The notes: a model not told the origin generated them from the sequence alone. Shown: positions 2,326-55,357, counted from the stretch's first letter. The stretch is 64,000 nt of DNA from an uncultured Bacilli bacterium (GCA_944372195.1 CALVYK010000003.1:10337-74336); one strand, 5' to 3'. Numbers and translations are program-made.

Positions 2326-2438
2326 AACATCCTCCTATATATTCCTCAATAATTATATAATATCTAAACAAAATCTTCAAGATTTAAAAATAATTTTACT
2401 TAATTTATGACAATTAAAAAGTATATAACTATATATAC

Positions 2439-3331: not shown

Positions 3332-3449
3332 TCTACCACCTATTTTAATTATAACATAATTTTAAATAAAAACATATTGATTTTAATTTTTCTGTATGAT
3401 ATTATTATAATGGTGAGATAGCATATCTACTGGGAAGGAGTTTTAGATC

Positions 3450-4610: not shown

Positions 4611-4621
4611 AATTATCCACA

Positions 4622-4650
4622 AAAAAGCCTTGTTCTAGGCTTTTTATTTT
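4622..4650. terminator. Bidirectional intrinsic terminator (acyltransferase / ptb)
   Basis: AAAAAGCCT tgttct AGGCTTTTT hairpin followed by TTTTATTTT. It overlaps the ptb stop at 4644-4646. Confidence 0.7.
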
Positions 4651-8376: not shown

Positions 8377-8495
8377 ATATACACTCACTTTCCTATAATT
8401 AAATTTTAACATATTTATATTATAAATTCTAGTCTATTTTACAAATAACCAAACTAATCATTCGTGAATATAATAATGAGAAAGGAGTTTATATA

Positions 8496-9227: not shown

Positions 9228-10005
9228 AGAGCATATTAATTATTTAAAAAAAATTAAAAGAAATAATCTTTTTATTAAAATAACGCAAGTTGGTATTTTA
9301 ATTCTATTTATTATTATTTGGCAATTATTATCAGATTATAAAATTATTAATCCTTTTATTTTTTCATCTCCTAAAAAAGTAATCGAATGTTTAATAAGTC
9401 TACATAACGCAAATAATTTATATAATCATATTTTTATAACTATATATGAAACTTTTATTAGTTTTTTACTAGGAACTTTATTAGGTATTTTAATAGCAAG
9501 TTTAATGTGGTGGAATAAATTTTTTGCTAAAGTTATCGATCCTTATTTGACTGTTTTAAATAGTCTACCCAAAGTAGCACTAGGCCCAATATTGATTATA
9601 TGGGTAGGAGCTGGTATGCAATCAATTATTGTAATGGCATTATTAATATCTACTATCATTACAATTATAACTGTTTATCAAGGTTTTATTAGTGTTGATC
9701 CAATCAAAGTAAAATTAATGCAAACCTTTAAGGCAAATAAACGACAAATATATATGAAATTAATATTACCTGCCACTTTGCCTAATATAATTAGTTGTTT
9801 TAAAGTGAATATCAGTATGTCTTTAATTGGAGTTATTATGGGAGAATTTTTAGTATCAAAAGAAGGTATCGGTTACTTAATTATGTATGGTTCGCAAGTA
9901 TTTAATTTAGATTTAGTTATCACAGGAACAATAATACTATGTTTAGTAGCAGTTATTATGTATTATTTAGTATTGTTACTAGAAAAAAAGTTAGTCAAAA
10001 ACTAA
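9220..10005 (+). CDS. ABC transporter permease (SsuC/TauC-like)
   Basis: 261 aa with 6 TM segments. It overlaps the ATPase gene by 8 nt and has the typical binding-protein-dependent permease layout. Confidence 0.85.
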   Translation: MTKEHINYLKKIKRNNLFIKITQVGILILFIIIWQLLSDYKIINPFIFSSPKKVIECLISLHNANNLYNHIFITIYETFISFLLGTLLGILIASLMWWNKFFAKVIDPYLTVLNSLPKVALGPILIIWVGAGMQSIIVMALLISTIITIITVYQGFISVDPIKVKLMQTFKANKRQIYMKLILPATLPNIISCFKVNISMSLIGVIMGEFLVSKEGIGYLIMYGSQVFNLDLVITGTIILCLVAVIMYYLVLLLEKKLVKN

Positions 10006-10859
10006 CTTTTTATTAATATAACCCCTATTACTGTTAATATAGCTGCAACAAACTTCTGTTTAAATTTACTTTTATCATGATAAAAAAAGTATTCAATTAA
10101 GGCATTTATTATGCCTGTTAAAGATAATAAAGAAGCTACAACGGTCACATTACCTACTTGATAAGCTTTTACAGACGAAATAAGCATTAAACACCAGGTA
10201 AATCCTGATAAAACAAAACATTTTTTATCGTATAAATTAAATTCATTTATTAATCCTCTAATTGTATGTTTACCAAAAATAAAAATATAAAATGCTGGTA
10301 TCAATACAGTAAAAATTGTATAAATAGCTAAATTAAAGTTTTCAGAAATATTAACGTTTATAAGCATTGCAATAGCAAATAATAAATTAGATATAAATGT
10401 TAAAACATAATACCTATTGATTTTAAATTTTCCTTTTTCAAAAAATAAGATTAAATTGGCTAGTATAATAACTATTGAACCTAATAATTTATTAATTAAA
10501 AATTCTTCTTTTAAAAATATAAAACCAAATATAATTAAATAAACTGTAGAAGATTGTTTAAGCATACTAAAAATAGATGGATCTAATCCATATCTTGCTT
10601 CAATATTTAATCTATCTGTAAAAGCATATAAAATTGTAACAATAAACAAAATCAAATATATATTTAAATTAGTTGTAAATTTAAATTCAAAAAATGGAAT
10701 TAAAAAAACAGCAAAAAAAGCAGTAAAAAATTCAATCAATATTGTTAGTGAACCGGCATTTTTCATGTTTCTATTTGCTTTTTTAAATGTTCTTGCAAAT
10801 ATAATGGAAGATATCAAATAAAGAATTGTCCAATACTGCCAAGAATTAAAAATATTCAT
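10002..10859 (-). CDS. EamA/DMT-family transporter
   Basis: Start moved to the ATG at 10859 (RBS aggtgaag 4 nt upstream). About 10 TM segments in two similar halves. Confidence 0.65.
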   Translation of the reverse strand: MNIFNSWQYWTILYLISSIIFARTFKKANRNMKNAGSLTILIEFFTAFFAVFLIPFFEFKFTTNLNIYLILFIVTILYAFTDRLNIEARYGLDPSIFSMLKQSSTVYLIIFGFIFLKEEFLINKLLGSIVIILANLILFFEKGKFKINRYYVLTFISNLLFAIAMLINVNISENFNLAIYTIFTVLIPAFYIFIFGKHTIRGLINEFNLYDKKCFVLSGFTWCLMLISSVKAYQVGNVTVVASLLSLTGIINALIEYFFYHDKSKFKQKFVAAILTVIGVILIKS

Positions 10860-10979
10860 AAACTTCACCTTAATTATTATTTTACTAAAAAAAAATAAAG
10901 TAAACAACAAAATTTTATAATAATTTGACAAAATATAAATCATATGATAAGATATCACGCCGAAAGAGGGGGATAATTT

Positions 10980-17539: not shown

Positions 17540-18997
17540 ATGGATAAAGAATTAAATAAAATAATTACCCATATTAAAGAAATGAATGGTAATAGTAGTG
17601 ATATTAATGTAAGATATTTTAATATTCATAAAGAAAAAGTAGCATTTATGTTTTTAGAAAGTGTCGCTAGCGATGATAAAATAAGTAATTATTTAGGCAA
17701 AAGTTTAAGTATTAATGTAAGAAGTAAAAAAAATATATTTGAAAATTTATTCGATAGTATTAATAATACTATTCCAAATAGTAAAGTTAAGATAATAGAT
17801 AACTATGACGATATTTTTTATCATTTAGCAAGCGGTTTTACTTGTGTTTTTGTCGATGGTTATAATAAAGCAATCACTTTAGAAACTAAAGCTTTATTAG
17901 ATAGAAGTGTTACTGAAGCTACTAGTGAACCTGTTTTAAAAGGTCCTAAAGATTGTTTTATTGAAAATATACTAGCTAATATGGGATTAATTAGGAAAAG
18001 AATTAAAGATCCCAATCTTTATTTTGAAGAAACAAAAGTTGGAAGAAGGACAAAAACAAAAGTTATAATTGGTTATATTAAAGATATTGCTGATGAAGAA
18101 AAAGTAAATTTATTAAAGAAAAAACTAGAAAAAATTAATATTGATGGAATCATCGATTCAAATTATATAAAAGAATTATTAACCGATAATCAAAAATCTT
18201 TTTTACCAAGAGTAATATCTACAGAAAGACCTGATTTAACCGCCATGGGATTATTAGACGGTAAAATAGCTATCATCGTAGAAAACACTCCTTATGTTTT
18301 ATTACTTCCTACCGTATTTGCTGATTTTTTCAAATCATCTGAAGACTATTATACAAAACCATTTAATGCCTCTTTTACAAGAATATTAAGATATATCGCT
18401 TTTTTTATTGCTATATTAGTTCCAGCTCTTTATATAGCTGTAACTACATTTAATATGGAAGTCGTCCCTAGTTCTTTATTAATATCATTTTCTATTCAAA
18501 GAGAAAGTGTTCCCTTTCCCACCATAATAGAAGTTCTAATACTAGTAATTTCTTACGAGATATTAAGAGAAGCCGATACAAGAAAACCACAAATCATGGG
18601 CGCATCCATCAGTATTGTCGGTGCTTTAATTTTAGGTGAAGCAGCTGTTTCTGCCGGCGTTATATCACCAATTGTTGTTATTGTTATTTCTATTTCAGCC
18701 GTTTCAGGAATGGGTTTCAATGATCCAGACATAACAAATGCAATTAGAATATGGCGAATTTTATTCATGTTGGCCGCTTGCTTGTTTGGTATTGTTGGAA
18801 TCGTCATTTTATTCATTATCTTTATAACTAAATTGAACAGTATTGAAGTATTAGGTACACCTTATTTAGCGCCTTTATCTCCTTTTAGTTTAAAAGATTT
18901 TAAAAATTCTTTGACAAGATTCCCTCAGCAAAAAATCAAGACAAGACCGACTTATTTTAATAAAAAAAATATTAATAGAATAGGAAGTGACAAATGA
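17540..18997 (+). CDS. Spore germination protein, GerA-family A subunit
   Basis: 485 aa with a soluble N-domain followed by 4-5 TM segments. First gene of a three-gene germinant-receptor operon. RBS aggtga. Confidence 0.85.
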   Translation: MDKELNKIITHIKEMNGNSSDINVRYFNIHKEKVAFMFLESVASDDKISNYLGKSLSINVRSKKNIFENLFDSINNTIPNSKVKIIDNYDDIFYHLASGFTCVFVDGYNKAITLETKALLDRSVTEATSEPVLKGPKDCFIENILANMGLIRKRIKDPNLYFEETKVGRRTKTKVIIGYIKDIADEEKVNLLKKKLEKINIDGIIDSNYIKELLTDNQKSFLPRVISTERPDLTAMGLLDGKIAIIVENTPYVLLLPTVFADFFKSSEDYYTKPFNASFTRILRYIAFFIAILVPALYIAVTTFNMEVVPSSLLISFSIQRESVPFPTIIEVLILVISYEILREADTRKPQIMGASISIVGALILGEAAVSAGVISPIVVIVISISAVSGMGFNDPDITNAIRIWRILFMLAACLFGIVGIVILFIIFITKLNSIEVLGTPYLAPLSPFSLKDFKNSLTRFPQQKIKTRPTYFNKKNINRIGSDK

Positions 18998-20154
18998 AAA
19001 AACTATTAATCATTCCATTAATATTCCTATTAACTGGGTGTTGGAATTATCGCGAACTTAATCAATTAGCTATAACGACTGGGATTGCAGTAGATAAAGA
19101 AAATGATAATTATAAAATAACTATTATGATAGCTAATTCTAAAAAAAGCAGTAGTTCAGATGATAGTATAACTCCATCAGCAGCTGTTTACGATGGAACA
19201 GGTCAAACAATTTATGAAGCCTTTAAAGATACATCTTTAAGTGTATCTAAACAAATTTATCTAAGTCATATTGATGTATTAGTATTATCTGAAGAAGTCG
19301 CAAAAAATAATTTAACTGATGTAATTGATTTTCTATTTCGTTATCCCCAAACAAGAAATAATTTTTATTTAGTTTTAGCAAAGGATAAAAAAGCTAGCGA
19401 CATCTTAAAAGTAACTACGCCATTAGAGACATTTCCCTCTCAAAATCTAGCTAAAAATCTTGAAATAACTGATAAATTACAAGGATTTACTTATACAGTC
19501 GATTTTACTGATTTTACAAAATCACTTGTATCAGAAGGGATAAATCCTATTCTTCCATCAGTAACAATCATTGGAAATAGTGAAGAAGGAAATAAAGAAG
19601 AAAACGTACAACAAAATGAACCATCTACTTATTTAAAATTAGACATATTAGGATTATTTAAAAAAGATAAATTTGTTGCTTGGGCCAATCCTAATCAAAG
19701 CAAAGGAATCAATATAATCAATAATAAAATATACATATTAGGAGTTATCATTGATTACCAAAATGAAAAAATAGTAACAGAAATAACCGAAATGAAAACT
19801 GATTTTAAAGTTGAAAATAATAAAGTGAAAATAACTATTGGTGCAACTGGAGCAATTCAAGAGGTAAATGCTAATGTTAATCTATATAATCTTAAAACTA
19901 TTGAAGAAATTCAAAATTCAGATGTTGAAAAAATTAAAGAATATGTTAATGATGCTATTAATTTAGCCAAAGATAATAAAACAGATATTTTTGGTTTTGG
20001 AAACTATGTTTATAAGAATAATCCTAAAAAATGGAATGAGATAAAAGATAAATGGGACGATGAAATATTCCCTAGTTTAGAAGTAGAAATAGAAGTCAAT
20101 CTAAAACTTCAGGCCAAAGGTTCAATAAATAATATCGTTGAGGTGAGAGAATGA
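18994..20154 (+). CDS. Ger(x)C-family germination lipoprotein
   Basis: Lipobox LLTGCW, then the GerxC-typical WNYRELNQLAITTGIAVD. ATGA overlap with the A subunit. Confidence 0.85.
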   Translation: MKKLLIIPLIFLLTGCWNYRELNQLAITTGIAVDKENDNYKITIMIANSKKSSSSDDSITPSAAVYDGTGQTIYEAFKDTSLSVSKQIYLSHIDVLVLSEEVAKNNLTDVIDFLFRYPQTRNNFYLVLAKDKKASDILKVTTPLETFPSQNLAKNLEITDKLQGFTYTVDFTDFTKSLVSEGINPILPSVTIIGNSEEGNKEENVQQNEPSTYLKLDILGLFKKDKFVAWANPNQSKGINIINNKIYILGVIIDYQNEKIVTEITEMKTDFKVENNKVKITIGATGAIQEVNANVNLYNLKTIEEIQNSDVEKIKEYVNDAINLAKDNKTDIFGFGNYVYKNNPKKWNEIKDKWDDEIFPSLEVEIEVNLKLQAKGSINNIVEVRE

Positions 20155-21224
20155 AAGTAACTAATTCAGAATATGCTTGTTTATCATCTTTTTTAATAAG
20201 ATCATTATTTTTTGGACCAGCTATTTATAGTATCTTACATTTTGCTTTACAAGATGGCTGGATAAGTATCATCGTTTCATTTATTTTAAGCTTTATTCCT
20301 TTAATTATTTATTATAAGCTACTAAATTGTAATCCTAATGATAATATTGTTAGCTTAAATAACAAATTAGGATTAATAGGAAAAATAATTAATACAATTC
20401 TAACAGCTTTTGTTATTTTTCACGCCAGTCTAATTCTATGGAATTTAACTAACTTCATATATTCACAATTTCTATTCCAAACACCATTAATTGTTATTGC
20501 TATTATTATTTCCTTTGGCATATTTTATATCAGTATTAAAAACCTAACAACTATCGCTAGAACGGGAACTGTTTTCTTTATTATTAGCACTATACTATAT
20601 TTTATAGCAGCTTTATCTTTAATTAGTAAATGCGATTTAAATGGTCTTAAACCCATTTTCAACTCAGGTATTATGTCAATTCTAAAGGGAAGTTTTTCTT
20701 CTTTAGGACTTAATATATTTCCTTTATTTATAATTTTAATAATACCGAAAAATAACATCAAAAATAATAACAAAATTATATCATCTTTCTTTAAAGTTTA
20801 TATTTTCAGATATTTGTGCATGCTATCAGTATTAGTAATTTGTGTAGCTATTTTGGGAATAGAATTAACTAACCTTTATCAATATCCGGAATATCACATT
20901 TTAAAAACTATTAATATTGCTAACTTTTTTCAAAGAGTCGAATCAGTTTTATCAGTTCAGTGGATATTTGATGCTGTCATGTCAATAGCATTATGCCTTT
21001 ATTATGTTAAAGAAAGTATAACCAAAACATTTAATTTAAAAAACAAATTTAATTTAATAAATATTATTTGCATTATTAGTATTTTAATTATCGCAAATTA
21101 TATCTTTACTAGTAATACGGTAGCAGAAACATTTTATAAAAATATTTATCCTTTTCTAACTTCAATCTTTTTCTTAATTATTCCTTTGATAATATTAATA
21201 ATAGTTAAAGTTAAGAAAACTTAA
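20151..21224 (+). CDS. Spore germination protein, GerAB-type permease subunit
   Basis: 357 aa with about 10 TM segments (APC-like). ATGA overlap with the C subunit. Confidence 0.8.
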   Translation: MKVTNSEYACLSSFLIRSLFFGPAIYSILHFALQDGWISIIVSFILSFIPLIIYYKLLNCNPNDNIVSLNNKLGLIGKIINTILTAFVIFHASLILWNLTNFIYSQFLFQTPLIVIAIIISFGIFYISIKNLTTIARTGTVFFIISTILYFIAALSLISKCDLNGLKPIFNSGIMSILKGSFSSLGLNIFPLFIILIIPKNNIKNNNKIISSFFKVYIFRYLCMLSVLVICVAILGIELTNLYQYPEYHILKTINIANFFQRVESVLSVQWIFDAVMSIALCLYYVKESITKTFNLKNKFNLINIICIISILIIANYIFTSNTVAETFYKNIYPFLTSIFFLIIPLIILIIVKVKKT

Positions 21225-25484: not shown

Positions 25485-25617
25485 ATTCTCACCTATAATT
25501 ATTATATATGATTTTTTTATAATTATCAATATGTTTATTTATAAAATATAGGTGTTTAATTCACACCCTTTTGTCATTATTGAATATGCTATATTAGAAA
25601 ATGAAAGGGTGGATTTT

Positions 25618-26064
25618 ATGTGTAATAATGAAAATGAATCTTGCAAATGCATAGCGGAAATATTAACTGTAATATGTATTCTACAACAAAACGCAAATTG
25701 TTCTGATTCATGTTTAGATACATGTGATCGTGGATTTTTAGGTTGTGGTACTACTACTTATACTTGCAATACAAGACCTATAATGTTATATACATGCTGT
25801 GGTAATGGGACACCATGGAGTATGCCAACAACTAAAGATACAACTGACTGTACTGACACTCCAACACCATCAAATTGTTCAAACGTATTTAGAATTGAAA
25901 AAATTGATGGATGTTGTGCAACTTTTAGAGTTCTAGCACCAAATACTGATCCTCTAACACAAGCAGCTATTCCATATGTATCAACTAATTCTTTCTTTAC
26001 TATGAATTTAAATTGTGTTTGTAGTTTAAGATGTTTACAAGATACATACGTTGAATGTTTATAA
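25618..26064 (+). CDS. CotY/CotZ-family spore coat/crust protein
   Basis: Start moved to the ATG at 25618 (RBS gaaagggtgg). Cys-rich, with VFRIEKIDGCCATFRVLAP and NLNCVCSLRCL aligning to the CotY blocks FFRVEKLCDCCATLSILRP and LGCFCAIQCL as I remember them. Confidence 0.75.
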   Translation: MCNNENESCKCIAEILTVICILQQNANCSDSCLDTCDRGFLGCGTTTYTCNTRPIMLYTCCGNGTPWSMPTTKDTTDCTDTPTPSNCSNVFRIEKIDGCCATFRVLAPNTDPLTQAAIPYVSTNSFFTMNLNCVCSLRCLQDTYVECL

Positions 26065-29400: not shown

Positions 29401-30978
29401 ATGTCTTGCATAATTACTATCTAATATTCTTGATAGTTCTAATGTATCAATAACTGTATTTTTATACTCACCTAAATTATATTTTTTATAACACATCTCT
29501 AAAAAAGATGTATCAAATTTAGCATTATGAGCAACCATTGGTAGGTCACCAAACCACTCAATAAATCTTTTAATAGCATTTTCCTCGTTATCTTTTCCTT
29601 CTAACATTTCATCAGTTATGTTAGTAACTTCAGTTATTTTAGGAGGTAATTTTCTACCTGGATTAATTAATTCATCATATCTATCAATTATCTCTCCATT
29701 ATGAATTTTAACAGCACCAATTTCAATAATAGTATCGCCACCTGCCGCATTAAAACCAGTTGTTTCAAAATCAAATACGACATAAGTATTATCTAATAAA
29801 ACAGAATCATTTTCTCTTACTACAATATTAACACTATCATCAATTAAAGTTAATTCCGTTCCGTAAATAGCTTTAAATTTGTCTTTTTCTTCTTTACCCT
29901 TATTTAAATCACATACTAGGTGATATACATCAGGGTATGCTTGAGCACCATTATGATCGGTAATAGCAATAGCCTTATGACCCCATTTATATGCTTGTTT
30001 AACTAATGTTTTAGCATCTACTACTCCATCCATTTGACTCATCATTGTATGTGCATGTAATTCAACTCTTTTTTCTTTAGCATCATCATTAGGTGTGGTT
30101 ATAACTTTATCACTTTTATTAACATCTCTTAAATTTAAAACTATTTCATTAGAATACTTATCAAATTTAGTATATCCTCTAAATTTATACCAAGTATTAT
30201 TTTTTATATTTTTCTTATAAAAATCAAAATCACTTTGTTCTTTTACAAATAATTTAGCGTACATACTATCATTAAAATCTGTTATTTTTAAAGTAAATAT
30301 TTTAAAATTAGATTTACTTGATTCAAAAATGTCAATACCAAAAACATAGGCTTCGATACTTACATTATCTTCTTCGGTAAATATACCACTTATCTCATGT
30401 GTAATTTTAGGAATATAACTACCCATTATTTCAATTATTTCCTTTTTTTCTTTTGGAACTTCTATAACCTTTGATTCTTCGATTTCTTTTCTTATTTCTT
30501 TACTTTTTTCTTCATCAATAGTTATATTTATATTAATATCATCATATCCTACGCTATTTAACAAATCAATTAATTTAACTTCTATTGATTTAAATTTCAT
30601 TTCTTCGGCTTTATTAGCCACCTTAATATTAATTGTATTATCATTAATATCTAAATTATCAGTTATAAAAGTTTCTAATAAAGGAAACTCTTTTAGATTC
30701 TGTTTTAGTAAATAATTATAATAATCATTTATATATTCATTTATTTTATCATCTACTTTAAATGAAACACCAACTTTGTAGTTTTTAAAATTGTTTTTTA
30801 AACAATCTAAAAAACTTATATAAGTTGAAAGTGGTAATGTGTTTTTTAAAGTAATAAAAAAGTGATAACACGTTTTGTCTTTATTACCTATTATTTTATC
30901 TAATTTTCCTTCATTAAAAAAAACAAATAAATTGTTATCTAGTTTAATTTGATTTAATAATAGATTAAGTTTTTCCAT
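26461..30978 (-). CDS. polC: DNA polymerase III PolC-type alpha subunit (PHP, 3'-5' exonuclease, polymerase core)
   Basis: Start moved to the ATG at 30978 (RBS ggtgg). The exonuclease motif is VVFDFETTG...HNAKFD. The PHP motif is VELHAHTMMSQMDG. The zinc-module Cys pairs are CPNCKH...CPKC. About 1505 aa. Confidence 0.95.
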   Translation of the reverse strand: MEKLNLLLNQIKLDNNLFVFFNEGKLDKIIGNKDKTCYHFFITLKNTLPLSTYISFLDCLKNNFKNYKVGVSFKVDDKINEYINDYYNYLLKQNLKEFPLLETFITDNLDINDNTINIKVANKAEEMKFKSIEVKLIDLLNSVGYDDININITIDEEKSKEIRKEIEESKVIEVPKEKKEIIEIMGSYIPKITHEISGIFTEEDNVSIEAYVFGIDIFESSKSNFKIFTLKITDFNDSMYAKLFVKEQSDFDFYKKNIKNNTWYKFRGYTKFDKYSNEIVLNLRDVNKSDKVITTPNDDAKEKRVELHAHTMMSQMDGVVDAKTLVKQAYKWGHKAIAITDHNGAQAYPDVYHLVCDLNKGKEEKDKFKAIYGTELTLIDDSVNIVVRENDSVLLDNTYVVFDFETTGFNAAGGDTIIEIGAVKIHNGEIIDRYDELINPGRKLPPKITEVTNITDEMLEGKDNEENAIKRFIEWFGDLPMVAHNAKFDTSFLEMCYKKYNLGEYKNTVIDTLELSRILDSNYARHNLTALVKRYDVPWDEDAHHRADYDAEGTALVFHKMMQKLSSQNIERVSQLNKMIDKSEIHKYGRSYHVNILVKNKKGLKNLFKIISLANTVYLYKTPRILRSVLNELREGLLIGSGCYESEVFVEAKSKSDEELTNIINFYDYVEVQPLDVYNHLLQTNDFGSSIELMEHIRKIIRVTKDSGKIIVATGDVHHLFKEDKIYREIIVNQKVPGGGRHPLAKNSITEIPSQHFRTTNEMLENFDFLDEETRKEIVITNPNKIADMIEIVEVIIETGGVPFSPRIDKSVETVTDLVYTKAKDWYGDPLPYNIEERIAKELYGDGIFNSIKEELKRNNVLNIEEEGFKILHETILQGFDAVKDKIRNEIKITEPDLNDEEVEKKLKKTLGGIIGGGFDVIYLIAQKLVKKSNDDGFLVGSRGSVGSSFVATMMGITEVNPLPAHYRCPNCKHSIFEIDGVPLANTYSSGFDLPDLECPKCNTKMLKDGNDMPFATFLGFNADKVPDIDLNFSDLNQAAAHEYTKVLFGEDNVYRAGTIGTVAEKTAYGFVKGYCEDKGITKKSAEIERLALGCTGVKRTTGQHPGGIVVIPGYMDVFDFTPFQYPADDPTSAWRTTHFDYHAIDQDVLKLDILGHSDPTQLRMIQDLSGHDITKVPLDDKETMKIFLSPEPLGVTKEQILNETGTLGIPEFGTPFTIGLVAETKPTTFAELIKISGLSHGTDVWLGNAQELIKNNIVPFKEVIGCRDDIMVYLMQKGMKPIKAFKIMEFVRKGKASKEPDKWVEFEQEMKEAGIEDWYINSCRKIKYMFPKAHATAYVTSAFRIAYYKVHYPSYFYASWFSTKATDFDIETMIKGYDAIKNRMAEISNKGYDASNKESGILECLKLALEMTARGLKFKNIDLNKSQATTFSLDEEGNLIPPFSSIDGLGDTVAKTIVEERNKGEFLSIEDLQKRGKVSSTLIEKMRNMHILDNLDESSQLSLF

Positions 30979-31029
30979 TTTTACCACCCAATATATTGTA
31001 TCAAATATAATTTTTTTTAACAACTAAAT

Positions 31030-31896
31030 TTAGACAATTTTACTTGTTTTTATTAATCCAATTATTTTATCTTTATTTTCATCATATTGACCAAAATGAC
31101 TATCATATAAAGATGTACCTATTCTTATTAATTCTTCAACTTGATTATCACTTTCAGAAATATAATTATTTATTTTATTACCTATTTCTTTAATCAATTC
31201 TCTCTTTTTTGGAGGTAAAGTTAATTTTACTCTAACTTTACCTAAAGGTTTCATTTTTTTTACAAAATTTGCAACTTCATAACATACTGGAATTTGTCTA
31301 CCTTGTTTAGTAAACACATAATCAAAAGATAGATTAAATTCTTCTAAAATTAATAACATCATTTGCATTTTTATAGAAATATCAGAAGAACATAAATCAG
31401 GATTTTCACCATAAAATAAATAATATATTTCACATAATAATCTTTCACTATCGCTTAACTTTAACATAGTAACATCTTTTAATGCTTTAATTTGATCTAT
31501 TCTTCTAGAAAGCATACTTAAAATATTAGAATCTTTTGTATCACTATTGTATAATTTTAATTCTTTACCTATTTTATATATAAATTTATTATCTTTTTTT
31601 ACTTCTTCATATAAACATAACTGTTTATCAATGTACACAACTATCTTCTTATTTTCTCCTCTGAAAAAATGAATTTCTAGATAAGATTCATCAAAATCAT
31701 TGAAAATTGTTCTAAGCCATGCAACATTTCTAATCATATCATCACATGATTTTATTTTTTCAAAACATTGTTCAATTAATTTATCTAATTTATCATAATC
31801 AATATTTTCTTTTTTTTCATTTCCAGTAAAAACAAAATAGAAAACTTTATTATCATCTATAAATTTTTTTTCAATACTTTTATTGTTTTTTAACAT
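31030..31896 (-). CDS. Hypothetical protein, paralog A of a tandem pair
   Basis: 288 aa. It shares long identical blocks with the next gene (CDDMIRN, DFDESYLEIH, LFYGE.PD, QMMLLILEEF..SFDY). RBS aggggga. Confidence 0.7.
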   Translation of the reverse strand: MLKNNKSIEKKFIDDNKVFYFVFTGNEKKENIDYDKLDKLIEQCFEKIKSCDDMIRNVAWLRTIFNDFDESYLEIHFFRGENKKIVVYIDKQLCLYEEVKKDNKFIYKIGKELKLYNSDTKDSNILSMLSRRIDQIKALKDVTMLKLSDSERLLCEIYYLFYGENPDLCSSDISIKMQMMLLILEEFNLSFDYVFTKQGRQIPVCYEVANFVKKMKPLGKVRVKLTLPPKKRELIKEIGNKINNYISESDNQVEELIRIGTSLYDSHFGQYDENKDKIIGLIKTSKIV

Positions 31897-31930
31897 AATA
31901 TTCCCCCTGAAAGTAATTATAGCATATTTC

Positions 31931-32824
31931 TTAATTAAAATTTAATTTTTTTATTAAGCTAAGTATTTTAATATATTCTAATTCTTCTAATGATTGATTA
32001 CCATATGTACAATTTCTTTTTGTATATAAAATGGTTCCAAGTTTAATTAAAACTTTTAATGGTTCATCTTGATTATTTATATATTCATTTATATTATTTC
32101 CAACTAATTGAATAACTTTTTTGTTTTCTTCACTTAAATCAACATCATCTTCTATCTCACCAAATAATTTTATCTTATTTACAAATTCAGTAACCTCAAA
32201 TGACACTGGATACTCTCTTCTTCCTTTATTAAAATCATAATCAAAAGATATACCAAATTCTTCTAAAATTAATAACATCATTTGAAATTTTATATTTATA
32301 GAAGATGAGATAAAATCAGGTGTTTCTCCATAAAAAAGTTTATAAACTTGATATAATATCTTATCTTTATATGTTATTTTTAAACTATTAACACTTTCTA
32401 ATTTTTTTAAATATTTAATCTTATTTATTGAACAATCAATTATTCCAGAAGTATAAGGATCAAAATTATTGTCAAAATAACTAATTCCTTTACCTATTGT
32501 ATATCTTATATTTACACCTTTTTCATTTGTCTCTTCATATCTAAATAATAATTTATTAACATATAAAATAATTATTTTATTTTCTCCTTCTACTAAATGA
32601 ATTTCCAAATAAGACTCATCAAAATCTTTAAAAATTGTTCTAATGCGAGAAATATTTCTTATCATATCATCACAATATTGGAAATTTTGAAAACTTTGAT
32701 CTATTATTTGATTTAACTTTTCATAGTCAATATTTTGCTTTTTTTCACTTCCAGAAAAAATAAAATATAATAAATTATCCTTATTAAAAAAAGTCTTTTC
32801 GATTCTTTTATCATTTACTAACAT
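31931..32824 (-). CDS. Hypothetical protein, paralog B of a tandem pair
   Basis: Start moved to the ATG at 32824 (GGAGGATGTAGT ATG). 297 aa, collinear with paralog A over its full length. Confidence 0.7.
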   Translation of the reverse strand: MLVNDKRIEKTFFNKDNLLYFIFSGSEKKQNIDYEKLNQIIDQSFQNFQYCDDMIRNISRIRTIFKDFDESYLEIHLVEGENKIIILYVNKLLFRYEETNEKGVNIRYTIGKGISYFDNNFDPYTSGIIDCSINKIKYLKKLESVNSLKITYKDKILYQVYKLFYGETPDFISSSINIKFQMMLLILEEFGISFDYDFNKGRREYPVSFEVTEFVNKIKLFGEIEDDVDLSEENKKVIQLVGNNINEYINNQDEPLKVLIKLGTILYTKRNCTYGNQSLEELEYIKILSLIKKLNFN

Positions 32825-32944
32825 ACTACATCCTCCGATAATAATTATAACACAATTAAAAAAATTTGCCTCTAAATTATTATAATAATTCAATATTTTT
32901 AAATATGTGATATAATAGTTGTCACGTTGAAGGGGGAAATAATT

Positions 32945-34303
32945 GTGCCAAACTTAAAAGTAGGATATTTGTTTAAAAAGAAATACATAACTTATCAAGA
33001 TAAAAAATATGAAATTTTTGAATTTGTTGATTATGCTGCTGCTATTAGTTTTAGAAATACACAACACAATTTTATATGCAACATAATAAGCGGAAATAAA
33101 GCTGGAATGTATGCAAGTATTATTAACGAAAACGCTAACGAAGGAGAATATGTATTTTTAATAGATGATATTGATAATGCTATAAAAGATAATGAAAATT
33201 CTGTAGATTTTGTTACAATTCGAAAAAAACGAATTCAATCAACTGCAAAATATTATTTAAGAAATAATGGTACCGGACTAACAAGATTATTAAATGAAGA
33301 TCTAATATCATATATAGAAAATGGCAATAAAAGTCAAGCAGAATTTGATGAAGATGTATTTGAAAAAACTACTGATATATCATCAATGTATGCATCAATC
33401 AAAAAAACAATAATTTCACAAGATGAACAAATAATGCAAATATTGACAGCACTATTCAAAAATCAAAAAGTAGTAGACTCAGGTTTGGATATGGACTTAA
33501 TTGCTAAATTAAAAGAAAATATTTTAATTTTTGGTTCTACAGGTACAGGTAAAACAGAAATATTAAAAAGAATTTCTAAATTATATAAAATTCCTATTGT
33601 AATTGAAGATGCTACATCTCTTTCTGAAACTGGATATCAAGGAAGAAAAATTACTGACATGCTTGAAGATTTGTGTTTAGCAGCAAATGGAGACATTGAT
33701 TTAGCTGAAAAAGGAATTTTAGTTATTGATGAATTTGATAAACTTGCAGAAAAATCAAGCGATAGTCAATCTCATGTTTCCAGATTAGGAGTGCAAAGGT
33801 CTTTATTAAAATTACTTGATGGTTGTTTATTCTATTTTGGTGATAAAAAATTTGATACATCTAAACTAACAATAGTAGGACTCGGAGCTTTTACAGGAAT
33901 AACTAAGGGGGATGATTATTCTCACCTTACAACAGATAATTTTATAGAATATGGAATTATGAGAGAATTAATTGGAAGATTCTCAAAAACAATTCCTATG
34001 AATCCTTTAAAAAAAGAAGATATAATTAAAATATTAAAAGAATCTGATTTTAGTCCAATAAATACATATAAAAAATTATTTGAAATATTAGAAGTAGATT
34101 TTGAATTCACTGATGATTTTATAGATTATATCGCGGAACTAGCAATTTCAAAACAAAGTGGCGCTCGAAGTTTAAAAACTGTTTTTGACAATTGTATTAG
34201 TAGCGCTTTATTTAGAATTTTTGCTGGAGAATATTCTAGTATCTCTTTAATAAAGCCTGATGACGAAAATGATAAACCTTATGTTTTAACAAAAACAAAA
34301 TAA
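32945..34303 (+). CDS. ClpX-like AAA+ ATPase without zinc-finger N-domain and without IGF/ClpP-docking loop
   Basis: A GTG start at 32945 lies 7 nt after AAGGGGGA. Motifs: Walker A GSTGTGKTEI, pore-loop region ETGYQGRK, Walker B ILVIDEFDKL, LLKLLDG, ELIGRF box, sensor-2 GARSLK. The N-terminal 190 aa have no CxxC pairs. A possible promoter is TTCAAT-16-TATAAT at 32889-32916. Confidence 0.8.
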   Translation: MPNLKVGYLFKKKYITYQDKKYEIFEFVDYAAAISFRNTQHNFICNIISGNKAGMYASIINENANEGEYVFLIDDIDNAIKDNENSVDFVTIRKKRIQSTAKYYLRNNGTGLTRLLNEDLISYIENGNKSQAEFDEDVFEKTTDISSMYASIKKTIISQDEQIMQILTALFKNQKVVDSGLDMDLIAKLKENILIFGSTGTGKTEILKRISKLYKIPIVIEDATSLSETGYQGRKITDMLEDLCLAANGDIDLAEKGILVIDEFDKLAEKSSDSQSHVSRLGVQRSLLKLLDGCLFYFGDKKFDTSKLTIVGLGAFTGITKGDDYSHLTTDNFIEYGIMRELIGRFSKTIPMNPLKKEDIIKILKESDFSPINTYKKLFEILEVDFEFTDDFIDYIAELAISKQSGARSLKTVFDNCISSALFRIFAGEYSSISLIKPDDENDKPYVLTKTK

Positions 34304-34388
34304 ACAAAACATGATTTATTAAAAAAAAATCAACTTAAATTAAGTTGCTTTTATATAAAAGTTCGAATAATTCAAACTGATTTGTCAA

Positions 34389-34474
34389 TGGTGCTTGTGG
34401 TGGGAATCGAACCCACATGACCAAAAGCCACACGATTTTGAGTCGTGCGCGTCTACCAGTTCCGCCACACAAGC
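34389..34474 (-). tRNA. tRNA-Leu (anticodon CAA), class II with long variable arm, CCA encoded
   Basis: The reverse complement reads GCTTGTG-TG-GCGGAACTGGTAGACGC-G-CACGA CT CAA AA TCGTG-TGGCTTTTGGTCAT-GTGGG TTCGATT CCCAC-CACAAGC-A-CCA. All four stems pair. An extended -10 (TGaTATAAT) lies about 10 nt upstream on the minus strand. Confidence 0.9.
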
Positions 34475-48926: not shown

Positions 48927-51821
48927 TTAACCAATTCTAAATGCAGGTGATACTCCATAACTGGAATTAGCATAATAACAATGCCAAGTACCAGTATAGT
49001 AAACACTGTAAAAATAATCCGTACTAAGGTAATCAACCGTTCTTAACCACCATGTTTGAGCTTTACCTTGATACATTTTTATAGTTTTTGAGAATTCGGA
49101 TGTTGTAACTCCAGAGTTCTTATAATAATCTAATTGTCTAGTACTATTATATGCACTATCATATCCTCCAGCATTTGCACCCCATACTTCCATAGGTGAA
49201 AGTAAATATAATTTATCTACAGTAGTAAAATTGCCACTTTCATAATATTGACCATACCCTGAAACAACAGTAGTATTTATTATAATATTTTTTAAATCAG
49301 TAGGCAAAGAATTATATATTGTACTATTTAAAAAGTTTCTCAAATCAGAATCTCGCCATCCACCTTTATTTGTTGGAGTAGCCTTCATTACATGAGTTGT
49401 AATTATATCAACGAATTCAATTACAAAACCACATGCAGATTGAGATTCATAATTTGTACAATTTGTTGTTTTATTTGCCAACCTAACTGTAAAATTTCCG
49501 TAACCAGATAAATTTATTGTTTTAGTATCCCCAACGTCATACTCAGAAACTGTTCCATTTTTTATGTTACTAGAAATTGTACTCCATGAATCATAGTCAA
49601 ATGGTGTTTTAACAATAATCTGCGTAGAAGCTGCTGAAGTATTGCCAGCCCCACTTTTCATAGTACAAGTTAATGTATAAGTACCCGCAGATAAGGAATT
49701 TAAATTTGTAATAACATTATTATTAATTTTACATGTTGTTGTTCCATTACTTAAATTAGAATTATAGTTTGTTAAAATAGTAAAGTAATTAATTGCATTT
49801 ACAGATGTTCCTCTTCTTATTATACTACTTGAGCTTTTAGCACTTAATTTAGGTTCAGTCTTGTCAATCTTTATTGTATAACTTCTAGTTGAACTATTTC
49901 CCGCTAAATCCGTTGTTGTTATTGTTACTTTTGTTCCACTTGTATTTGATGTTATACTGCTAACATTACTTGTTGTACTTGAATGTCCTGATAAACTATC
50001 GCTTCCATTTACTTTATTTACTGTTACATTGCTTGTATACCAACTATTACTTCCTAATGTTCCTGTAAATGTCGCTGTTCCGGCTGTTGGTGCTGTCTTA
50101 TCTAGTTTATATGTATCACTACAAAGCTTTGATGTTTTATTATTATTATCGGTTACTTCGATACATAACCTATTATTTCCTTCTACTTCTATATAGAAGT
50201 CTTTGGTTGCCCCTGTAAAGCTTGCTACTGGCGTACATTCGCTTGAACTATTACTTGAACAACTTTTCGCAGTCTTAATTCCACTTCCACTATTATCTGT
50301 GATTGTTGCTCTTACAAAGAAATTACTCTTTGCCCAGCCATTACTATTTACAGAACTACTATCTACTAATTTATATGTAATTGTTGGTGCGGCTGCATCG
50401 ACAATAATGTTTCTTGTAACTTCTCTTGTATTTCCTGCTTTATCTGTTACTTTATATTTTACTGTCTTTGTTCCTGTTACTGATGTACTTATACTTGAAG
50501 GTTCTATTATCAAATCTCCTGATATGCCTGATAATGCATCACTATATGTTACTCCTGCTTTCAAGTCTACTGTTGTATTTCTTTGTACTGTCTTATCAGC
50601 TACTCCAGCTATATTTGGTAATGTCTTATCTAGTTTATAGGTATCACTACATACTTTTGATGTCTTATTATTATTATCTGTTACTTCGATACATATTCTA
50701 TTATTTCCTTCAGTTTGAATAGAGAATTCTTTTGTTGTTCCGGTAAAACTTGCGCTTGGTGTACATTCATTGGAACTATTAGTTGAACAGTTTTTAGCTA
50801 TCTTAATTCCAGTTCCACTATTATCTGTGATTGTAGCTCTTACAAAGAAATTACTCTTTGCCCAACCATTACTATTTACAGAACTGCTATCTACTAAATT
50901 GTATGTTATTGTTGGCGCGGCTGCATCGACAATAATATTTCTTGTTGCTTCTTTTGTATTTCCTGCTTTATCTGTTATTTTATATTTTACTACTTTTGTT
51001 CCAGTTACTGATGTATCTACAATTGTTGGCTCGATTATTAATTCGCCTGATATTCCTGATAATGCATCGTTATATGTTACTCCTGTTATTAAATCTACAT
51101 TCGTATTCCTTTGAACTGTTTTATCCCCTATTCCTTCTATATTTGGCGCTGTCTTATCTAAATTTAATTCCTCTGTACATACTACTTTACTTTCGCCATA
51201 TGCATTTTCTGCTTTGGCACACAATACATTTGTTCCTTCATTTATTATTATTTTTGTTCCATTTGTTTTATTTTCTTCTATGTTTGGCTCACATTCTGTA
51301 TTTCCTATACAATAATAATATTTTGTCCCTGTTCCATTTATATTTACCATTATATTTTTGTTTAGCCAGCTATTTTCATTTATATTTTCTTTATCATACA
51401 CTAGTGTCATCGTTGGTGCGATTTCTGTTCTTACACATGGTTCTGCATATTTAAAATAATATTGCTTAGCTGTCTCATTCCATCTATATAACACACATCC
51501 TTCCAATTCATTATTTGTTACTGGATTGATATGTTCTTTATCACTTATAAAACCTTTGTTAGCCAATTCTTTTAGTTCTAATATTTGTTGTTCTTTTGGA
51601 TAACCCAAATCATATTTAACGCTATAAAAATAAGCTGCTTCCTCAATATTTTCGATTGTTCTTTCTAAAGCACTCTCTCTACTTCTTTGGATTGATTTAT
51701 CTACTATTGGATATGTTATTAAAGCTATTACGGCTAGTATTATTATTACTCCTAATAATTCTATTAGTGTAAATCCTTTTTGTTCATGTATTTTTTTTAA
51801 TTTATTGGTGTTTTTCTTCAT
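48927..51821 (-). CDS. Giant modular protein with a prepilin-type N-terminal cleavage/methylation signal, tandem Ig-like modules and a DUF6273-like C-terminal domain
   Basis: The N-terminus is MKKNTNKLKKIHEQKG/FTLIELLGVIIILAVIALITYPIV (G-1, F+1, E+5). Two 176-aa repeats follow. The C-terminus WWLRTVDY...YGVSPAFRIG is typical of DUF6273-type domains (from memory). Confidence 0.8.
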   Translation of the reverse strand: MKKNTNKLKKIHEQKGFTLIELLGVIIILAVIALITYPIVDKSIQRSRESALERTIENIEEAAYFYSVKYDLGYPKEQQILELKELANKGFISDKEHINPVTNNELEGCVLYRWNETAKQYYFKYAEPCVRTEIAPTMTLVYDKENINENSWLNKNIMVNINGTGTKYYYCIGNTECEPNIEENKTNGTKIIINEGTNVLCAKAENAYGESKVVCTEELNLDKTAPNIEGIGDKTVQRNTNVDLITGVTYNDALSGISGELIIEPTIVDTSVTGTKVVKYKITDKAGNTKEATRNIIVDAAAPTITYNLVDSSSVNSNGWAKSNFFVRATITDNSGTGIKIAKNCSTNSSNECTPSASFTGTTKEFSIQTEGNNRICIEVTDNNNKTSKVCSDTYKLDKTLPNIAGVADKTVQRNTTVDLKAGVTYSDALSGISGDLIIEPSSISTSVTGTKTVKYKVTDKAGNTREVTRNIIVDAAAPTITYKLVDSSSVNSNGWAKSNFFVRATITDNSGSGIKTAKSCSSNSSSECTPVASFTGATKDFYIEVEGNNRLCIEVTDNNNKTSKLCSDTYKLDKTAPTAGTATFTGTLGSNSWYTSNVTVNKVNGSDSLSGHSSTTSNVSSITSNTSGTKVTITTTDLAGNSSTRSYTIKIDKTEPKLSAKSSSSIIRRGTSVNAINYFTILTNYNSNLSNGTTTCKINNNVITNLNSLSAGTYTLTCTMKSGAGNTSAASTQIIVKTPFDYDSWSTISSNIKNGTVSEYDVGDTKTINLSGYGNFTVRLANKTTNCTNYESQSACGFVIEFVDIITTHVMKATPTNKGGWRDSDLRNFLNSTIYNSLPTDLKNIIINTTVVSGYGQYYESGNFTTVDKLYLLSPMEVWGANAGGYDSAYNSTRQLDYYKNSGVTTSEFSKTIKMYQGKAQTWWLRTVDYLSTDYFYSVYYTGTWHCYYANSSYGVSPAFRIG
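50106..51161 (-). repeat. In-frame tandem duplication, 2 x 528 bp (176 aa each), inside the pilin-like gene
   Basis: Copy 1 is 50634-51161 (aa 221-396) and copy 2 is 50106-50633 (aa 397-572). Both start LDKT.PNI.G..DKTVQRNT.VDL. They contain an identical block apart from one residue: RNIIVDAAAPTITY.LVDSSSVNSNGWAKSNFFVRATITDNSG. Confidence 0.9.
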
Positions 51822-52438: not shown

Positions 52439-55357
52439 CTATTTTGTCTTTCCTGATATTTCATCTGTTGGTTGTGACTCAGATTGCAATTGAGCAAAAA
52501 AGTCATTTAAATCTTGAACAGATTCTTGTGAATACTGACTTCCCAACTCTTCTTGATGTTCTTGAGCTATATCTTCAGCAACATCTTTTACGGTAGTATC
52601 TCCTTGAGTTGTATTATTTTCATATTTGTTTACTACAGCACCATCTTCATTGATTGTAGAAGATACTATATTTTCATCTTCAGTAACGTCGCCAGTGCTT
52701 ATTCCAGATTGCTCTAAACGATCTACAATTTCTTGAGCAGCTTGTTCTTGCAAAGTGCCTGTGTCACCAGTGTTATTGGTTATAGTTGCAGTGTCATCAT
52801 CTGTTTTTAAAATGCCAACTTCTCCTTGTTCAACTGTTTGTGTTTCTTGTACTGGAGTTGGTTCTGGTGTTGGAACTGGAGTTGGCTCTGGTGTTGGCTC
52901 TGGTGTTGGAACTGGAGTTGGCTCTGGTGTTGGAACTGGAGTTGGCTCTGGTGTTGGAACTGGAGTTGGTTCTGGTGTTGGAACTGGAGTTGGTTCTGGT
53001 GTTGGAACTGGAGTTGGTTCTGGTGTTGGAACTGGAGTTGGTTCTGGTGTTGGAACTGGAGTTGGCTCTGGTGTTGGAACTAGAGTTGGTTCTGATAACT
53101 CACTATCATCTTTATTTTTATTTGAATCATCTGTTAAATTTTCCTCATCAAAATTATTATCAACAAAATCATAATCTAAATCTTCATCAGAAACATCTGG
53201 TCCTTCATCGCTTACTGATGGAATATCTTCCGTTGGCAAATCTTTTTCTTTCATTGCATTACATGCAGCAAGAGTAACAAGACAAGCAGTCACTAAAGTG
53301 GCTAAACTAATCAAACCCTTTTTATGTTTTTTCAAAAAGTCTAAAACATTTTTCTTTGCTTTTTTCCAAACAACAATTGGAACTGGTTGATTGTCGTTTT
53401 TATCTTCTTCTTTTGTTGTATCTGAAGTTGATTTTGTATCTTTATTTTCTTTTTCTTTTCCATCAACTGGAACTGGAATTGGTACTACACCAACTTTATC
53501 TTTTTCTTCATCTTGTTTTTCATCAGAAGTTGATTCTGCATCTTTATTTTCTTTTTCTTTCCCATCAACTGGAACTGGAATTGGTACTACACCAACTTTA
53601 TCTTTTTCTTCATCTTTTTTTGCATCAGAAGTTGATTCTGTATCTTTATTTTCTTTTTCTTTTCCATCAACTGGAACTGGAATTGGTACTACATCTACTT
53701 TATCTTTTTCTTCATCTTTTTTTGCATCAGAAGTTGATTCTGTATCTTTATTTTCTTTTTCTTTTCCATCAACTGGAACTGGAATTGTTACTACATCTAC
53801 TTTTTCTCTTTCTGATAAATTATGTATCATATTGTCTAGTTTATCTTCGTAATCATAAGAAATCGCTTTCTCACGTGTCTTTAATATTGTAAGTTGTGAT
53901 AGTAAATTATTTAATTGTTGCCTATCCATTTCCATAGCATATTTATCAATATTTTTCTTATCTAACAATTCTTTTTTCTTTGCATCAAGTTTTTTTTCAT
54001 CAGCAGCCATAAGATTTTCAAAATTCTTTTTACTTTTCTTGACAAGTGTAGTAGCAAATTCAACAGATAAAATTGTTTTATTTATTCTTTCAATTTGCTT
54101 GTCAATATTATCTATTTCTTTAAGAAGTCTACGTTTCTCTTTAGTAATAATTTCCTTTTGTTGATTATATATATCTGTTGGAAGTATAGCTTCATTAGTT
54201 CTCAAGGTATCTAGTTGAGATAATAATCCTTTTTTGTTTTCTTCTAACTTAGATATATCATTTTCCAAAGATATTTTTTGATTTTCAGTAGATATTAATG
54301 ATGCCTCATAGTTCTTAATTTCAGCATCATATCGAGAAATATTATCCTGTAATGTTGATATTTCACTATTGATAGCTTCAACTGCAAATATAGATGGTAC
54401 ATAATTATTTTCATCAGATAACTTATCTTCTAATGATATTTTTTGCATCAAAATATCTGCTTGCAATCTTTGATTTTCAGCAATTTCTTTGTCCATATTA
54501 TCATACTTATTAGTCAATAATGATGGTAACATAAATTTAAATGATTTTAATTGTTTTAATATCTCATCATCGCTAATTTGATCATTTTCGATTTGACTTA
54601 TTAAAGATTCTAGTTCAATAGGAAAGTCAAATGCTATATATTTTTCTCTATTATTGTAAGATTGTACAACATTTTTTAATTGTACTAATTTTTTTTCATC
54701 AGCATTTTTTTTGGCAATATCAATAGAATTATTAACATCGTCTTGATCCTTTTGTTTTATATGATCCAAGAATTTTTCATATTTTCCTTTTTGACCTTTT
54801 AATAATTTTTTTCTATATTCCAAATTATCTAAACTTGCCATTAATTCATTTTTTTCTTGTGTATAGTTATCCAACTCTACTTTGACAATATCAATATCTT
54901 CACGTAGACTTTCCATTTTCATTCTAGCAGCTTTTTCTTCTTCAGGATCTGGATTTTCACCTAAATTTCTAAACTGTACACCAGCCTGATCAAGTTCCTT
55001 TTGAGCTTCACTTGATAATTCATTACAAGCTTCTATTTCACTATTTACAATACCAAGTCTACTCTTGATTGCAAGAATTTCTGCATCTGTCTTAACAGTA
55101 TCCTCACTATTCTTTCTCAATGTTTCTTCGTAATCATAAATTTTAGAATGATTTTTAATATAATCAAACTTTCTATAATTGTCATCATCAGATAATTTTA
55201 CTTCTAAATCCCTAATTTTCATATTTAAAACTGCAAGTTGATTTTCAATTTCTTTTTGTTCTTTCTCTTTACTTTCAGCTGCTAAAGAAGTTGATTTATC
55301 ATTTTCTAACATTTCAGCCATTTCTTTTAATGCTGCTAACAATTCCTCTTTATTCAT
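52439..55357 (-). CDS. 972-aa bitopic protein: long cytoplasmic coiled coil, 4 x 34-aa repeats, one TM helix, extracellular acidic and (TPEPTPVP)n linker plus a small C-terminal domain
   Basis: The first ~520 aa are heptad-rich in K/E/L/N. The TM is [22 protein letters not shown], preceded by [16 protein letters not shown] (N-in). The repeats are listed separately. RBS agggtg. Confidence 0.75.
52851..53093 (-). repeat. About 10 tandem copies of a 24-bp unit encoding TPEPTPVP
   Basis: The plus strand reads ACTGGAGTTGG(T/C)TCTGGTGTTGGA repeated, with one 12-bp half-unit insertion. It is locally much more GC-rich than its surroundings. Confidence 0.9.
53393..53800 (-). repeat. Four tandem copies of a 102-bp unit encoding V(D/G)VV(T/P)[29 protein letters not shown]
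   Basis: Unit ends fall at 53800, 53698, 53596 and 53494, exactly 102 bp apart. The first two copies are nearly identical and the fourth is the most diverged. Confidence 0.9.

Follow-up and report, generated by a model that had tools for sequence, protein, structure and literature searches.

A stretch of 64,000 nucleotides from an uncultured Bacilli bacterium (GCA_944372195.1, CALVYK010000003.1:10337-74336; hereafter the window, with positions counted from its first letter) carries three genes between polC and a tRNA-Leu(CAA) gene. One encodes a ClpX-like AAA+ ATPase, and the other two, here called parA and parB, are tandem paralogs that face it across a divergent intergenic region. An earlier note on this DNA, made from the sequence alone, had taken the three genes for one self-contained accessory module at a tRNA-linked hotspot. 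Comparison with related loci leads us to favor, with a probability of roughly 0.6, a different organization in which the ATPase would be a stand-alone, protease-free unfoldase derived from ClpX and carried as cargo of a mobile island, and in which the paralogs form a separate family. The position of the trio between polC and tRNA-Leu(CAA)/scpAB was borne out by the open reading frame (ORF) map and by ARAGORN, with scpB and then scpA on the far side of the tRNA gene, and the locus is laid out as follows.

polC: ends at 31023, (-) strand; ORF map
31024..34321: strain-variable islet of exactly three genes, between the polC start and a shared spacer beside tRNA-Leu(CAA)
31030..31896, (-) strand: parA, 288 amino acids (aa), directly 5' of polC on the same strand; ORF map
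31931..32824, (-) strand: parB, 297 aa, tandem paralog of parA
32825..32944: divergent intergenic region, 120 bp; sequence read directly
32945..34303, (+) strand: AAA+ ATPase ORF, 452 aa, GTG start; ORF map
32945..33364, (+) strand: ATPase N-domain, residues 1-140, beta-rich and without a zinc finger
33365..34303, (+) strand: ClpX-type AAA+ module and small domain; motifs, hidden Markov model (HMM) and PDB alignment
34304..34388: spacer from the ATPase stop codon to the tRNA 3' end, 85 bp
34389..34474, (-) strand: tRNA-Leu(CAA), its 3' end facing the ATPase 3' end; ARAGORN

The ATPase gene is monocistronic, and both its coordinates and the ClpX motifs first noticed in it were confirmed. The motif order is that of canonical ClpX (TIGR00382/NF003745; PDB 6wr2, 3hws, 8yd0): Walker A, G-Y-x-G, Walker B, LLK(L/I)(L/I)(D/E)G (here LLKLLDG), arginine finger and sensor-2 GAR, followed in both by a C-terminal domain of the ClpB_D2-small type. 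All catalytic and pore motifs are intact, and Walker A and B, pore-1, ELIGRF and GARSLK are nearly invariant in a 68-sequence family alignment. Their positions, with those of two shortened loops, are given below.

33533-33556: Walker A, GSTGTGKT, residues 197-204
33632-33643: pore-1, GYQG, residues 230-233
33716-33739: Walker B, ILVIDEFD, residues 258-265
33824-33853: shortened RKH region
33896-33919: site of the IGF-loop deletion
33965-33982: arginine finger, ELIGRF
34160-34177: sensor-2, GARSLK

The Pfam matches of the ATPase are AAA_2, AAA and ClpB_D2-small. Its best NCBIfam family is ClpX, with HMM scores at half of the cut-offs (NF003745, 178.7 bits against 359; TIGR00382, 155.1 bits against 370.75), and HslU ranks second (TIGR00390, 122.5 bits against 362.45). 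The top PDB relatives are ClpX chains, with an E value of 4e-37 and ~35% identity in the motor. The C-terminal half also aligns to HslU (ClpY) chains (E values 1e-28 to 1e-20), and neither protein has an IGF loop, but the ATPase lacks an insertion of the size of the I-domain and an hslV-like neighbor, and has an N-terminal extension that is not found in HslU.

The departures from canonical ClpX concern the N-domain and two loops, in addition to the GYQG form of pore-1 and the mobile-island context. Canonical ClpX has a C4 zinc-binding N-domain with two CxxC pairs, whereas the ATPase has a 140-aa beta-rich domain without a PDB fold match; as had been observed, no CxxC pair occurs in the first ~190 residues, which contain a single cysteine (C45). 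The loops were compared with those of E. coli ClpX and of a C. perfringens plasmid ClpX. The RKH segment, from LLKLLDG to DTSKL, has 22 residues against 33 in ClpX, and RKH is absent from all 49 family sequences. The GLGAF-to-YGIM segment, 55 residues long in E. coli ClpX, has 28 here and lacks an [ILMV]GF, and the PDB alignment independently breaks at the same place, leaving ClpX chain residues 222 to 247 unaligned. The absence of the IGF loop that had been proposed for this protein therefore stands, but GITKG and FIEYG are 10 rather than about 15 residues apart, and the IGF-less state does not extend to the whole family. These alignments show a ClpX derivative in which the zinc finger, the RKH loop and the IGF loop have been replaced or removed.

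Because the zinc-binding domain and the IGF loop are both absent, ClpP-independent action is the natural prediction, and the same prediction had been made at the outset. A tblastn search with a B. subtilis ClpP query found no match in the window and 750 kb of loci, a result that says nothing on whole genomes. The ATPase would be a hexameric, single-ring, ATP-driven translocase in which the N-domain picks a specific client protein and the tyrosine loops of pore-1 draw that client through; with no peptidase docked, the client would be unfolded or disassembled and not degraded. Precedents for a ClpX-type motor acting as a pure unfoldase or remodeler are yeast Mcx1, a eukaryotic ClpX without ClpP, and ClpX acting on MuA. 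These differ in N-domain and lineage, and they are core genes as opposed to the island cargo considered here. ClpG/ClpK are stand-alone two-ring Hsp100 disaggregases of Proteobacteria found on transmissible heat-resistance islands. They are alike in concept, combining a peptidase-independent AAA+ chaperone, a special N-domain, a horizontally transferred island and a benefit to the host, but share no sequence relationship with the ATPase beyond the AAA+ fold.

Relatives of the ATPase were found in number. A word-indexed search of 5.8 billion proteins gave 1167 of them, and the best 120 of the 1167 are 79-100% identical and, where named, appear only as "AAA family ATPase [Bacilli bacterium]". 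When each species was represented by one genome, the scan yielded 56 full-length members with 52-87% identity. The sources are metagenome-assembled genomes (MAGs) titled uncultured Bacilli, Tenericutes, Mycoplasma sp. CAG:776 and Candidatus Pelethosoma, the last of which NCBI lists as Mycoplasmatota incertae sedis, and outside a clade of uncultured gut Bacilli the family was not detected. A scan of viral contigs found no relatives of either the ATPase or the paralogs, which makes a prophage origin unlikely. Phage and plasmid matches labeled clpX proved to be ordinary ClpX, and neither the zinc finger (CSFCGK...CSNC) nor the IGF loop is missing from the C. perfringens plasmid copy. Full-text paper searches returned no description of the ATPase family.

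The motor and the N-domain of this family have evolved very differently. Two subfamilies share motors at ~75% identity but N-domains at only ~25%, and conservation per 20-residue block is 80-93% in the motor against ~50% in the N-domain. The motor is under strong purifying selection, with a ratio of nonsynonymous to synonymous substitution rates (dN/dS) of 0.06-0.16, against 0.23-0.64 in the N-domain. An AlphaFold2 (AF2) model of residues 1-165 is beta-rich and has a predicted local distance difference test score (pLDDT) >90 to about residue 120. Foldseek of this model against the PDB returned no match at E<=0.001, with TM scores <0.3. Relative to L006, L011 and L012, synonymous divergence (dS) is 0.27-0.34 in the N-domain and 0.76-0.89 in the motor, a roughly 3-fold lower value in the N-domain that hints at recombination within the gene. 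Two copies also occur together: L022 has a tandem pair (8001-9374 and 9537-10883) with one member of each N-domain subfamily, and L046 and L051 are two copies on separate contigs of one MAG.

Of 49 family sequences, 28 have GYQG as the pore-1 loop and 17 have GYVG. The window copy and 45 of the 49 full-length aligned sequences show a clean deletion of the IGF loop, which leaves the 28-aa segment. Three members, L017 (3952-5412), L033 (7828-9288) and the database protein P0103 (486 aa, from a 90-sequence cluster), have 22-25 extra residues at the exact ClpX IGF position (...GNTIGFGSNN...), and L040 (8004-9467) has IGVG there, so that the docking loop is polymorphic in this family. The IGF-plus members are ~80% identical to the window ATPase, which has TKG at the insertion site, and in a rough neighbor-joining tree they fall inside the crown group beside IGF-less sequences. 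The family therefore stems from a ClpX that docked to ClpP, the loop deletion having recurred or spread by recombination. The retention of the motor in at least 56 species, with the zinc finger, RKH and IGF loop replaced or removed, amounts to a natural experiment on ClpP coupling, and the IGF-plus alleles with the window copy provide a ready pair for comparing a ClpX motor with and without ClpP.

A survey of ATPase neighbors by all-against-all ORF clustering in 63 sources (62 fetched loci and the window region) found no protein-coding neighbor common to more than a minority of them. The first downstream tRNA or transfer-messenger RNA (tmRNA) gene, in comparison, is convergent with the ATPase in 27 of 30 family loci (binomial p = 8e-6). 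Eleven tRNA/tmRNA identities occur in this position, ten of them convergent, and they include Leu-CAA, Leu-GAG, Leu-TAG, Thr-CGT, Thr-GGT, Gly-GCC, Gly-TCC, Arg-ACG and tmRNA; nine of these first downstream genes lie within 300 bp of the ATPase stop codon.

Several relatives carry a cassette 3' of the ATPase on the opposite strand, consisting of a 460-aa Mob_Pre (MobV) relaxase, a 600-640-aa protein with Resolvase and Recombinase domains, and a 93-aa ORF (c4). The cassette is complete in L007, L016, L047 and L067, and frameshifted or truncated in L015 and L064-66, where a decayed C-terminal piece of MobV likewise follows the ATPase stop codon. A C-terminal MobV remnant alone abuts the ATPase stop codon in L001-4, L010, L011, L019 and L069-71, and in four loci a KilA-N gene stands in place of the cassette, 41 bp past the stop codon. 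The tRNA or tmRNA gene lies beyond the cassette or, where there is none, directly after the ATPase. Identities to L016 for ATPase, MobV and recombinase, respectively, are 87/84/86% in L007, 93/-/94% in L015 and 63/49/56% in L047; L067 has 63% (ATPase) and 61% (MobV). Both a serine recombinase and a MobV relaxase are found in integrative mobilizable elements of the Tn4451 type (PMC5704250). The cassette encodes a pair equivalent to the TnpX large serine recombinase and TnpZ/MobV of this family, as L072, a sister strain of the window, does in part, but here the elements lie beside tRNA/tmRNA genes, and the gene linked to them codes for a ClpX-like ATPase and not for resistance. In our full-text paper searches this kind of cargo was not found described.

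The ATPase would thus lie within, or at the margin of, a mobile unit next to tRNA/tmRNA genes that has a Tn4451-like backbone. The full unit would run from the ATPase through three opposite-strand genes (MobV relaxase, large serine recombinase, 93-aa ORF) to a spacer and the tRNA gene; in the window, with the mobility genes absent, the ATPase abuts the spacer and tRNA directly. No recombinase or Mob gene occurs at 31024-34321, so the early remark that no integrase is present holds for the window but misses the serine recombinase and MobV genes that relatives carry between ATPase and tRNA and the L072 recombinase at the same tRNA-Leu. The window copy is at best a derivative of a Tn4451-like element without mobility genes. 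The window spacer (34315-34388) aligns with the stretch that separates the tRNA from the 93-aa ORF in L016 (11520-11625) and L072. A MobV 3' remnant after the window ATPase stop codon was considered and rejected, as the alignment shows spacer instead. No att-like direct repeats of the tRNA end were found inside the islet; the att sites of serine recombinases are short. In L010, the ATPase lies between direct repeats of ~350 bp (7311-7679 and 9572-9923, with blocks of 87-97% identity), and the downstream one abuts tRNA-Leu(CAA), which suggests tandem accretion of elements at the tRNA. Whether the gene is cassette cargo or a landmark, it is accessory and linked to mobile elements.

Three further alleles of the tRNA-Leu/polC slot (L072, L076/77 and L078) were compared with that of the window. 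In L072, polC, scpB and scpA are 96%, 99% and 97% identical at the protein level, and DNA identity is ~90% on both sides of the islet. It is 85-97% up to 31022, drops at 31023/31030 to 62-73% in parA, disappears at 31789 and is regained at 34322, in keeping with the earlier suggestion of accessory DNA at a tRNA-linked hotspot. The L072 slot has no ATPase; it holds a c4-like 93-aa ORF, a 604-aa large serine recombinase, four small ORFs of unknown function and one paralog-family gene with just 46% identity to parA. L078, at 95% identity from polC through parA and parB to the ATPase promoter, keeps both paralogs, but after the first ~10 ATPase codons it jumps to the post-stop spacer at ~15 nt of microhomology, and no tRNA was found after that spacer. 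In L076, parA is 91% identical, parB is replaced by an unrelated 338-aa HExxH protein (HELHH), and the ATPase is replaced by a stand-alone 153-aa N-domain ORF (HMM E value 3e-35) followed by a 365-aa HExxH protein (HEFCH); the slot genes lie at 1853-3488 (-) and 3734-4750 (+), with an AlbA_2/HATPase_c_4 gene next door. This arrangement may reflect shuffling of sensors and effectors. The segment 31024-34321 is a mosaic, strain-variable islet, and its sole constant is a hypervariable paralog-family gene 5' of polC, found on the same strand as polC in all four alleles. The base composition of the islet has no sharp island signature.

The two paralogs, whose lengths, shared identical blocks and 120-bp separation from the ATPase were as first reported, are 47% identical over 267 aa (E value 3e-82). 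A full HMMER search of 1.84 billion representatives found 278 clusters at E<=1e-3, of which 183 reach E<=1e-10; the proteins are mostly 300-335 aa long. The AF2 model of parA (pLDDT 93.3, predicted TM score (pTM) 0.89) has a beta-sheet N-domain (1-117) and a helical C-domain (122-287). The earlier note could place the paralogs in no family, and neither could we: a Foldseek comparison of this model with PDB and BFVD had no hit at E<=0.001 (TM scores <0.3), and Pfam, PDB-profile, PADLOC and PHROG scans of 65 family members gave nothing consistent, 4 of the 65 matching PDC-M34B weakly in PADLOC. An hhalign comparison of the paralog family with the ATPase N-domain found no relationship (probability 0.2%). 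The paralogs thus make up a sizeable family, and their structure, predicted with confidence, matches nothing in PDB or BFVD. In columns 300-349 of alignment A5, most members (~320 aa) end in a segment of the form ...S..EVE.S.KLVKKI... that parA lacks; by eye this segment resembles a helix-turn-helix, which no model confirmed. The gap on the polC side is about 50 bp (window 30978-31029; L072 8798-8804; L078 2834-2886), no terminator was detected between the paralog-family gene and polC, and the two may be co-transcribed. The most telling trait of the paralogs is their allelic hypervariability beside near-identical flanks.

Adjacency in a single genome suggested that parA, parB and the ATPase form one self-contained module, with the paralogs as substrates, adaptors or effectors of the motor, and the divergent arrangement over a common 120-bp control region recurs in L005. 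A paralog-family gene also occurs beside the ATPase in L035, L057 and L045, in the last of these directly upstream and on the same strand, and L076 has a parallel divergent layout, with the N-domain ORF and one HExxH protein opposite the other HExxH protein and parA. L035, L045 and L057 are, however, the only ones of ~60 other ATPase contexts with a paralog-family profile match within the fetched flanks, and relatives of the L045 ATPase (79%, 71% and 70% identity) have different neighbors and no paralog. The paralogs for their part occur without the ATPase in L063, L072, L073, L074 and L076-78, and L078 preserves both after the precise loss of the ATPase ORF. Homology between ATPase loci ends ~35-110 bp upstream of the GTG codon, short of parB, and two contexts that encode an identical ATPase protein (P0007) share DNA only from -414 to +116 nt around the gene. 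This lack of co-occurrence largely refutes the module, which we now regard as improbable; the comparative data make parA and parB a separate, fast-diverging family of ~300-aa cytoplasmic proteins that are neighbors of the ATPase and not its conserved partners. It is similarly hard to credit that the ATPase is the housekeeping ClpX of this lineage, a core gene of a reduced genome whose varied neighbors merely reflect poor synteny. The occurrence in at least 56 species, the conservation of the motor (80-93% per block, dN/dS ~0.1) and the IGF loop retained by some members would fit such a role. Against it, the syntenic slot has no ATPase in L072, L076 and L078, where flanks are 90-99% identical; the same protein occurs in two contexts, one MAG has two copies (L046, L051) and L022 a tandem pair; and the gene systematically borders on various tRNAs and on MobV, serine-recombinase and KilA-N genes.

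The remaining alternatives accept the link to mobile elements and differ on its meaning. The ATPase could be the insertion target or landmark of a Tn4451-like element and not its cargo, the recombinase reading the 3' end of the gene or the spacer, so that the window would be an empty site. The ~4-kb block of MobV, recombinase and 93-aa ORF is indeed cleanly present (L016) or absent (window) between ATPase stop codon and spacer, and serine-recombinase elements usually target specific conserved sequences (PMC5704250). Such a landmark leaves unexplained why the ATPase stands beside at least 10 different tRNA/tmRNA genes, the spacer goes with the ATPase or the cassette and not with the tRNA (L015, L078), L072 has a recombinase of the same type at tRNA-Leu without an ATPase, and identities of cassette and ATPase co-vary in most comparisons; we consider it unlikely, though it deserves some weight. 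A more doubtful possibility is that the ATPase serves the element itself by remodeling recombinase synapses, relaxosomes or replication proteins. The gene order with MobV and serine recombinase is kept across both ATPase subfamilies, and motors of the ClpX type are known to remodel DNA-transaction complexes, ClpX disassembling the MuA transpososome. A gene that served only the element should decay along with it, but the ATPase is intact (dN/dS ~0.1) where MobV is a C-terminal remnant or absent, as in the window. The favored reading, a protease-free ClpX-derived unfoldase as island cargo, has in turn some observations to contend with. In L064 the ATPase is 57% identical and the cassette 92-98% (57/92/98%), which better fits a cassette inserting beside an existing, very different ATPase allele; TIGFG is kept in L017, L033 and P0103, so the family is not uniformly ClpP-independent; and the paralog occurs near the ATPase in three other loci, somewhat above random placement.

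Decay of the mobility genes has left the ATPase intact and under purifying selection, and some strains have the gene while others lack it, so its client is probably a host protein or a protein of an invading element and not the transfer machinery of the element; this would make the gene accessory, fitness or defense-type cargo, as far as can be inferred. A further and rather unlikely extension is a single-gene, protease-free effector that unfolds a specific phage or rival-element protein, a new island-borne defense or interference function in which the fast-evolving N-domain acts as sensor; in that case the N-domain standing alone beside an HExxH protein in L076 would indicate exchange of sensors and effectors. 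Among defense proteins, PADLOC 2.0 and NCBIfam gave only partial P-loop matches to the ATPase (DolB, 5e-8; IetA, 1e-6; overall E values 5e-8 to 6e-5), with no full-length match to a known anti-phage system and no partner genes in PADLOC 2.0. The IetA/DolB defense ATPases share with it weak, generic matches in the AAA+ core (NCBIfam IteA, 22.4 bits against a cut-off of 510; PADLOC lists no cut-off) and a location in variable islands, but no IetS or DolA partner is present at the ATPase locus.

The intergenic region 32825-32944 contains an extended -10-like sequence, TGTGATATAAT, and a GGGGGA ribosome-binding site serving the ATPase. A promoter and terminator consensus scan found 44 sites against 35.5 expected, the consensus being poorly discriminating in DNA of only 20-28% GC. 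The spacer holds a TCAAC...GTTG hairpin and a near-palindrome, GTTCGAATAATTCAAAC (window 34340-34385), which may serve as a terminator, as a recombinase site or in both roles. The tRNA-side spacers of L016 (11545-11618) and L072 (2381-2445) have the same hairpin, and the near-palindrome reads GTTCGAATAGTTCGAAC in L016. The tRNA was the sole match in an Rfam scan.

Elsewhere in the window, a GerA spore-germination protein (Pfam E value 7e-157) is followed by two co-directional ORFs (17540-21224), and a cysteine-rich, CotZ-like spore-coat protein is encoded at 25552-26064. From these genes the host looks like an endospore former, in contrast to the titles Tenericutes, Mycoplasma or Mycoplasmatota of related records. 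Two proteins of ~970 aa are encoded at 48927-51821 (-) and 52439-55357 (-); one has no Pfam match, and the other combines an N-terminal prepilin-type methylation motif with Ig-like and DUF6273 domains in the manner of a giant pseudopilin-like surface protein.

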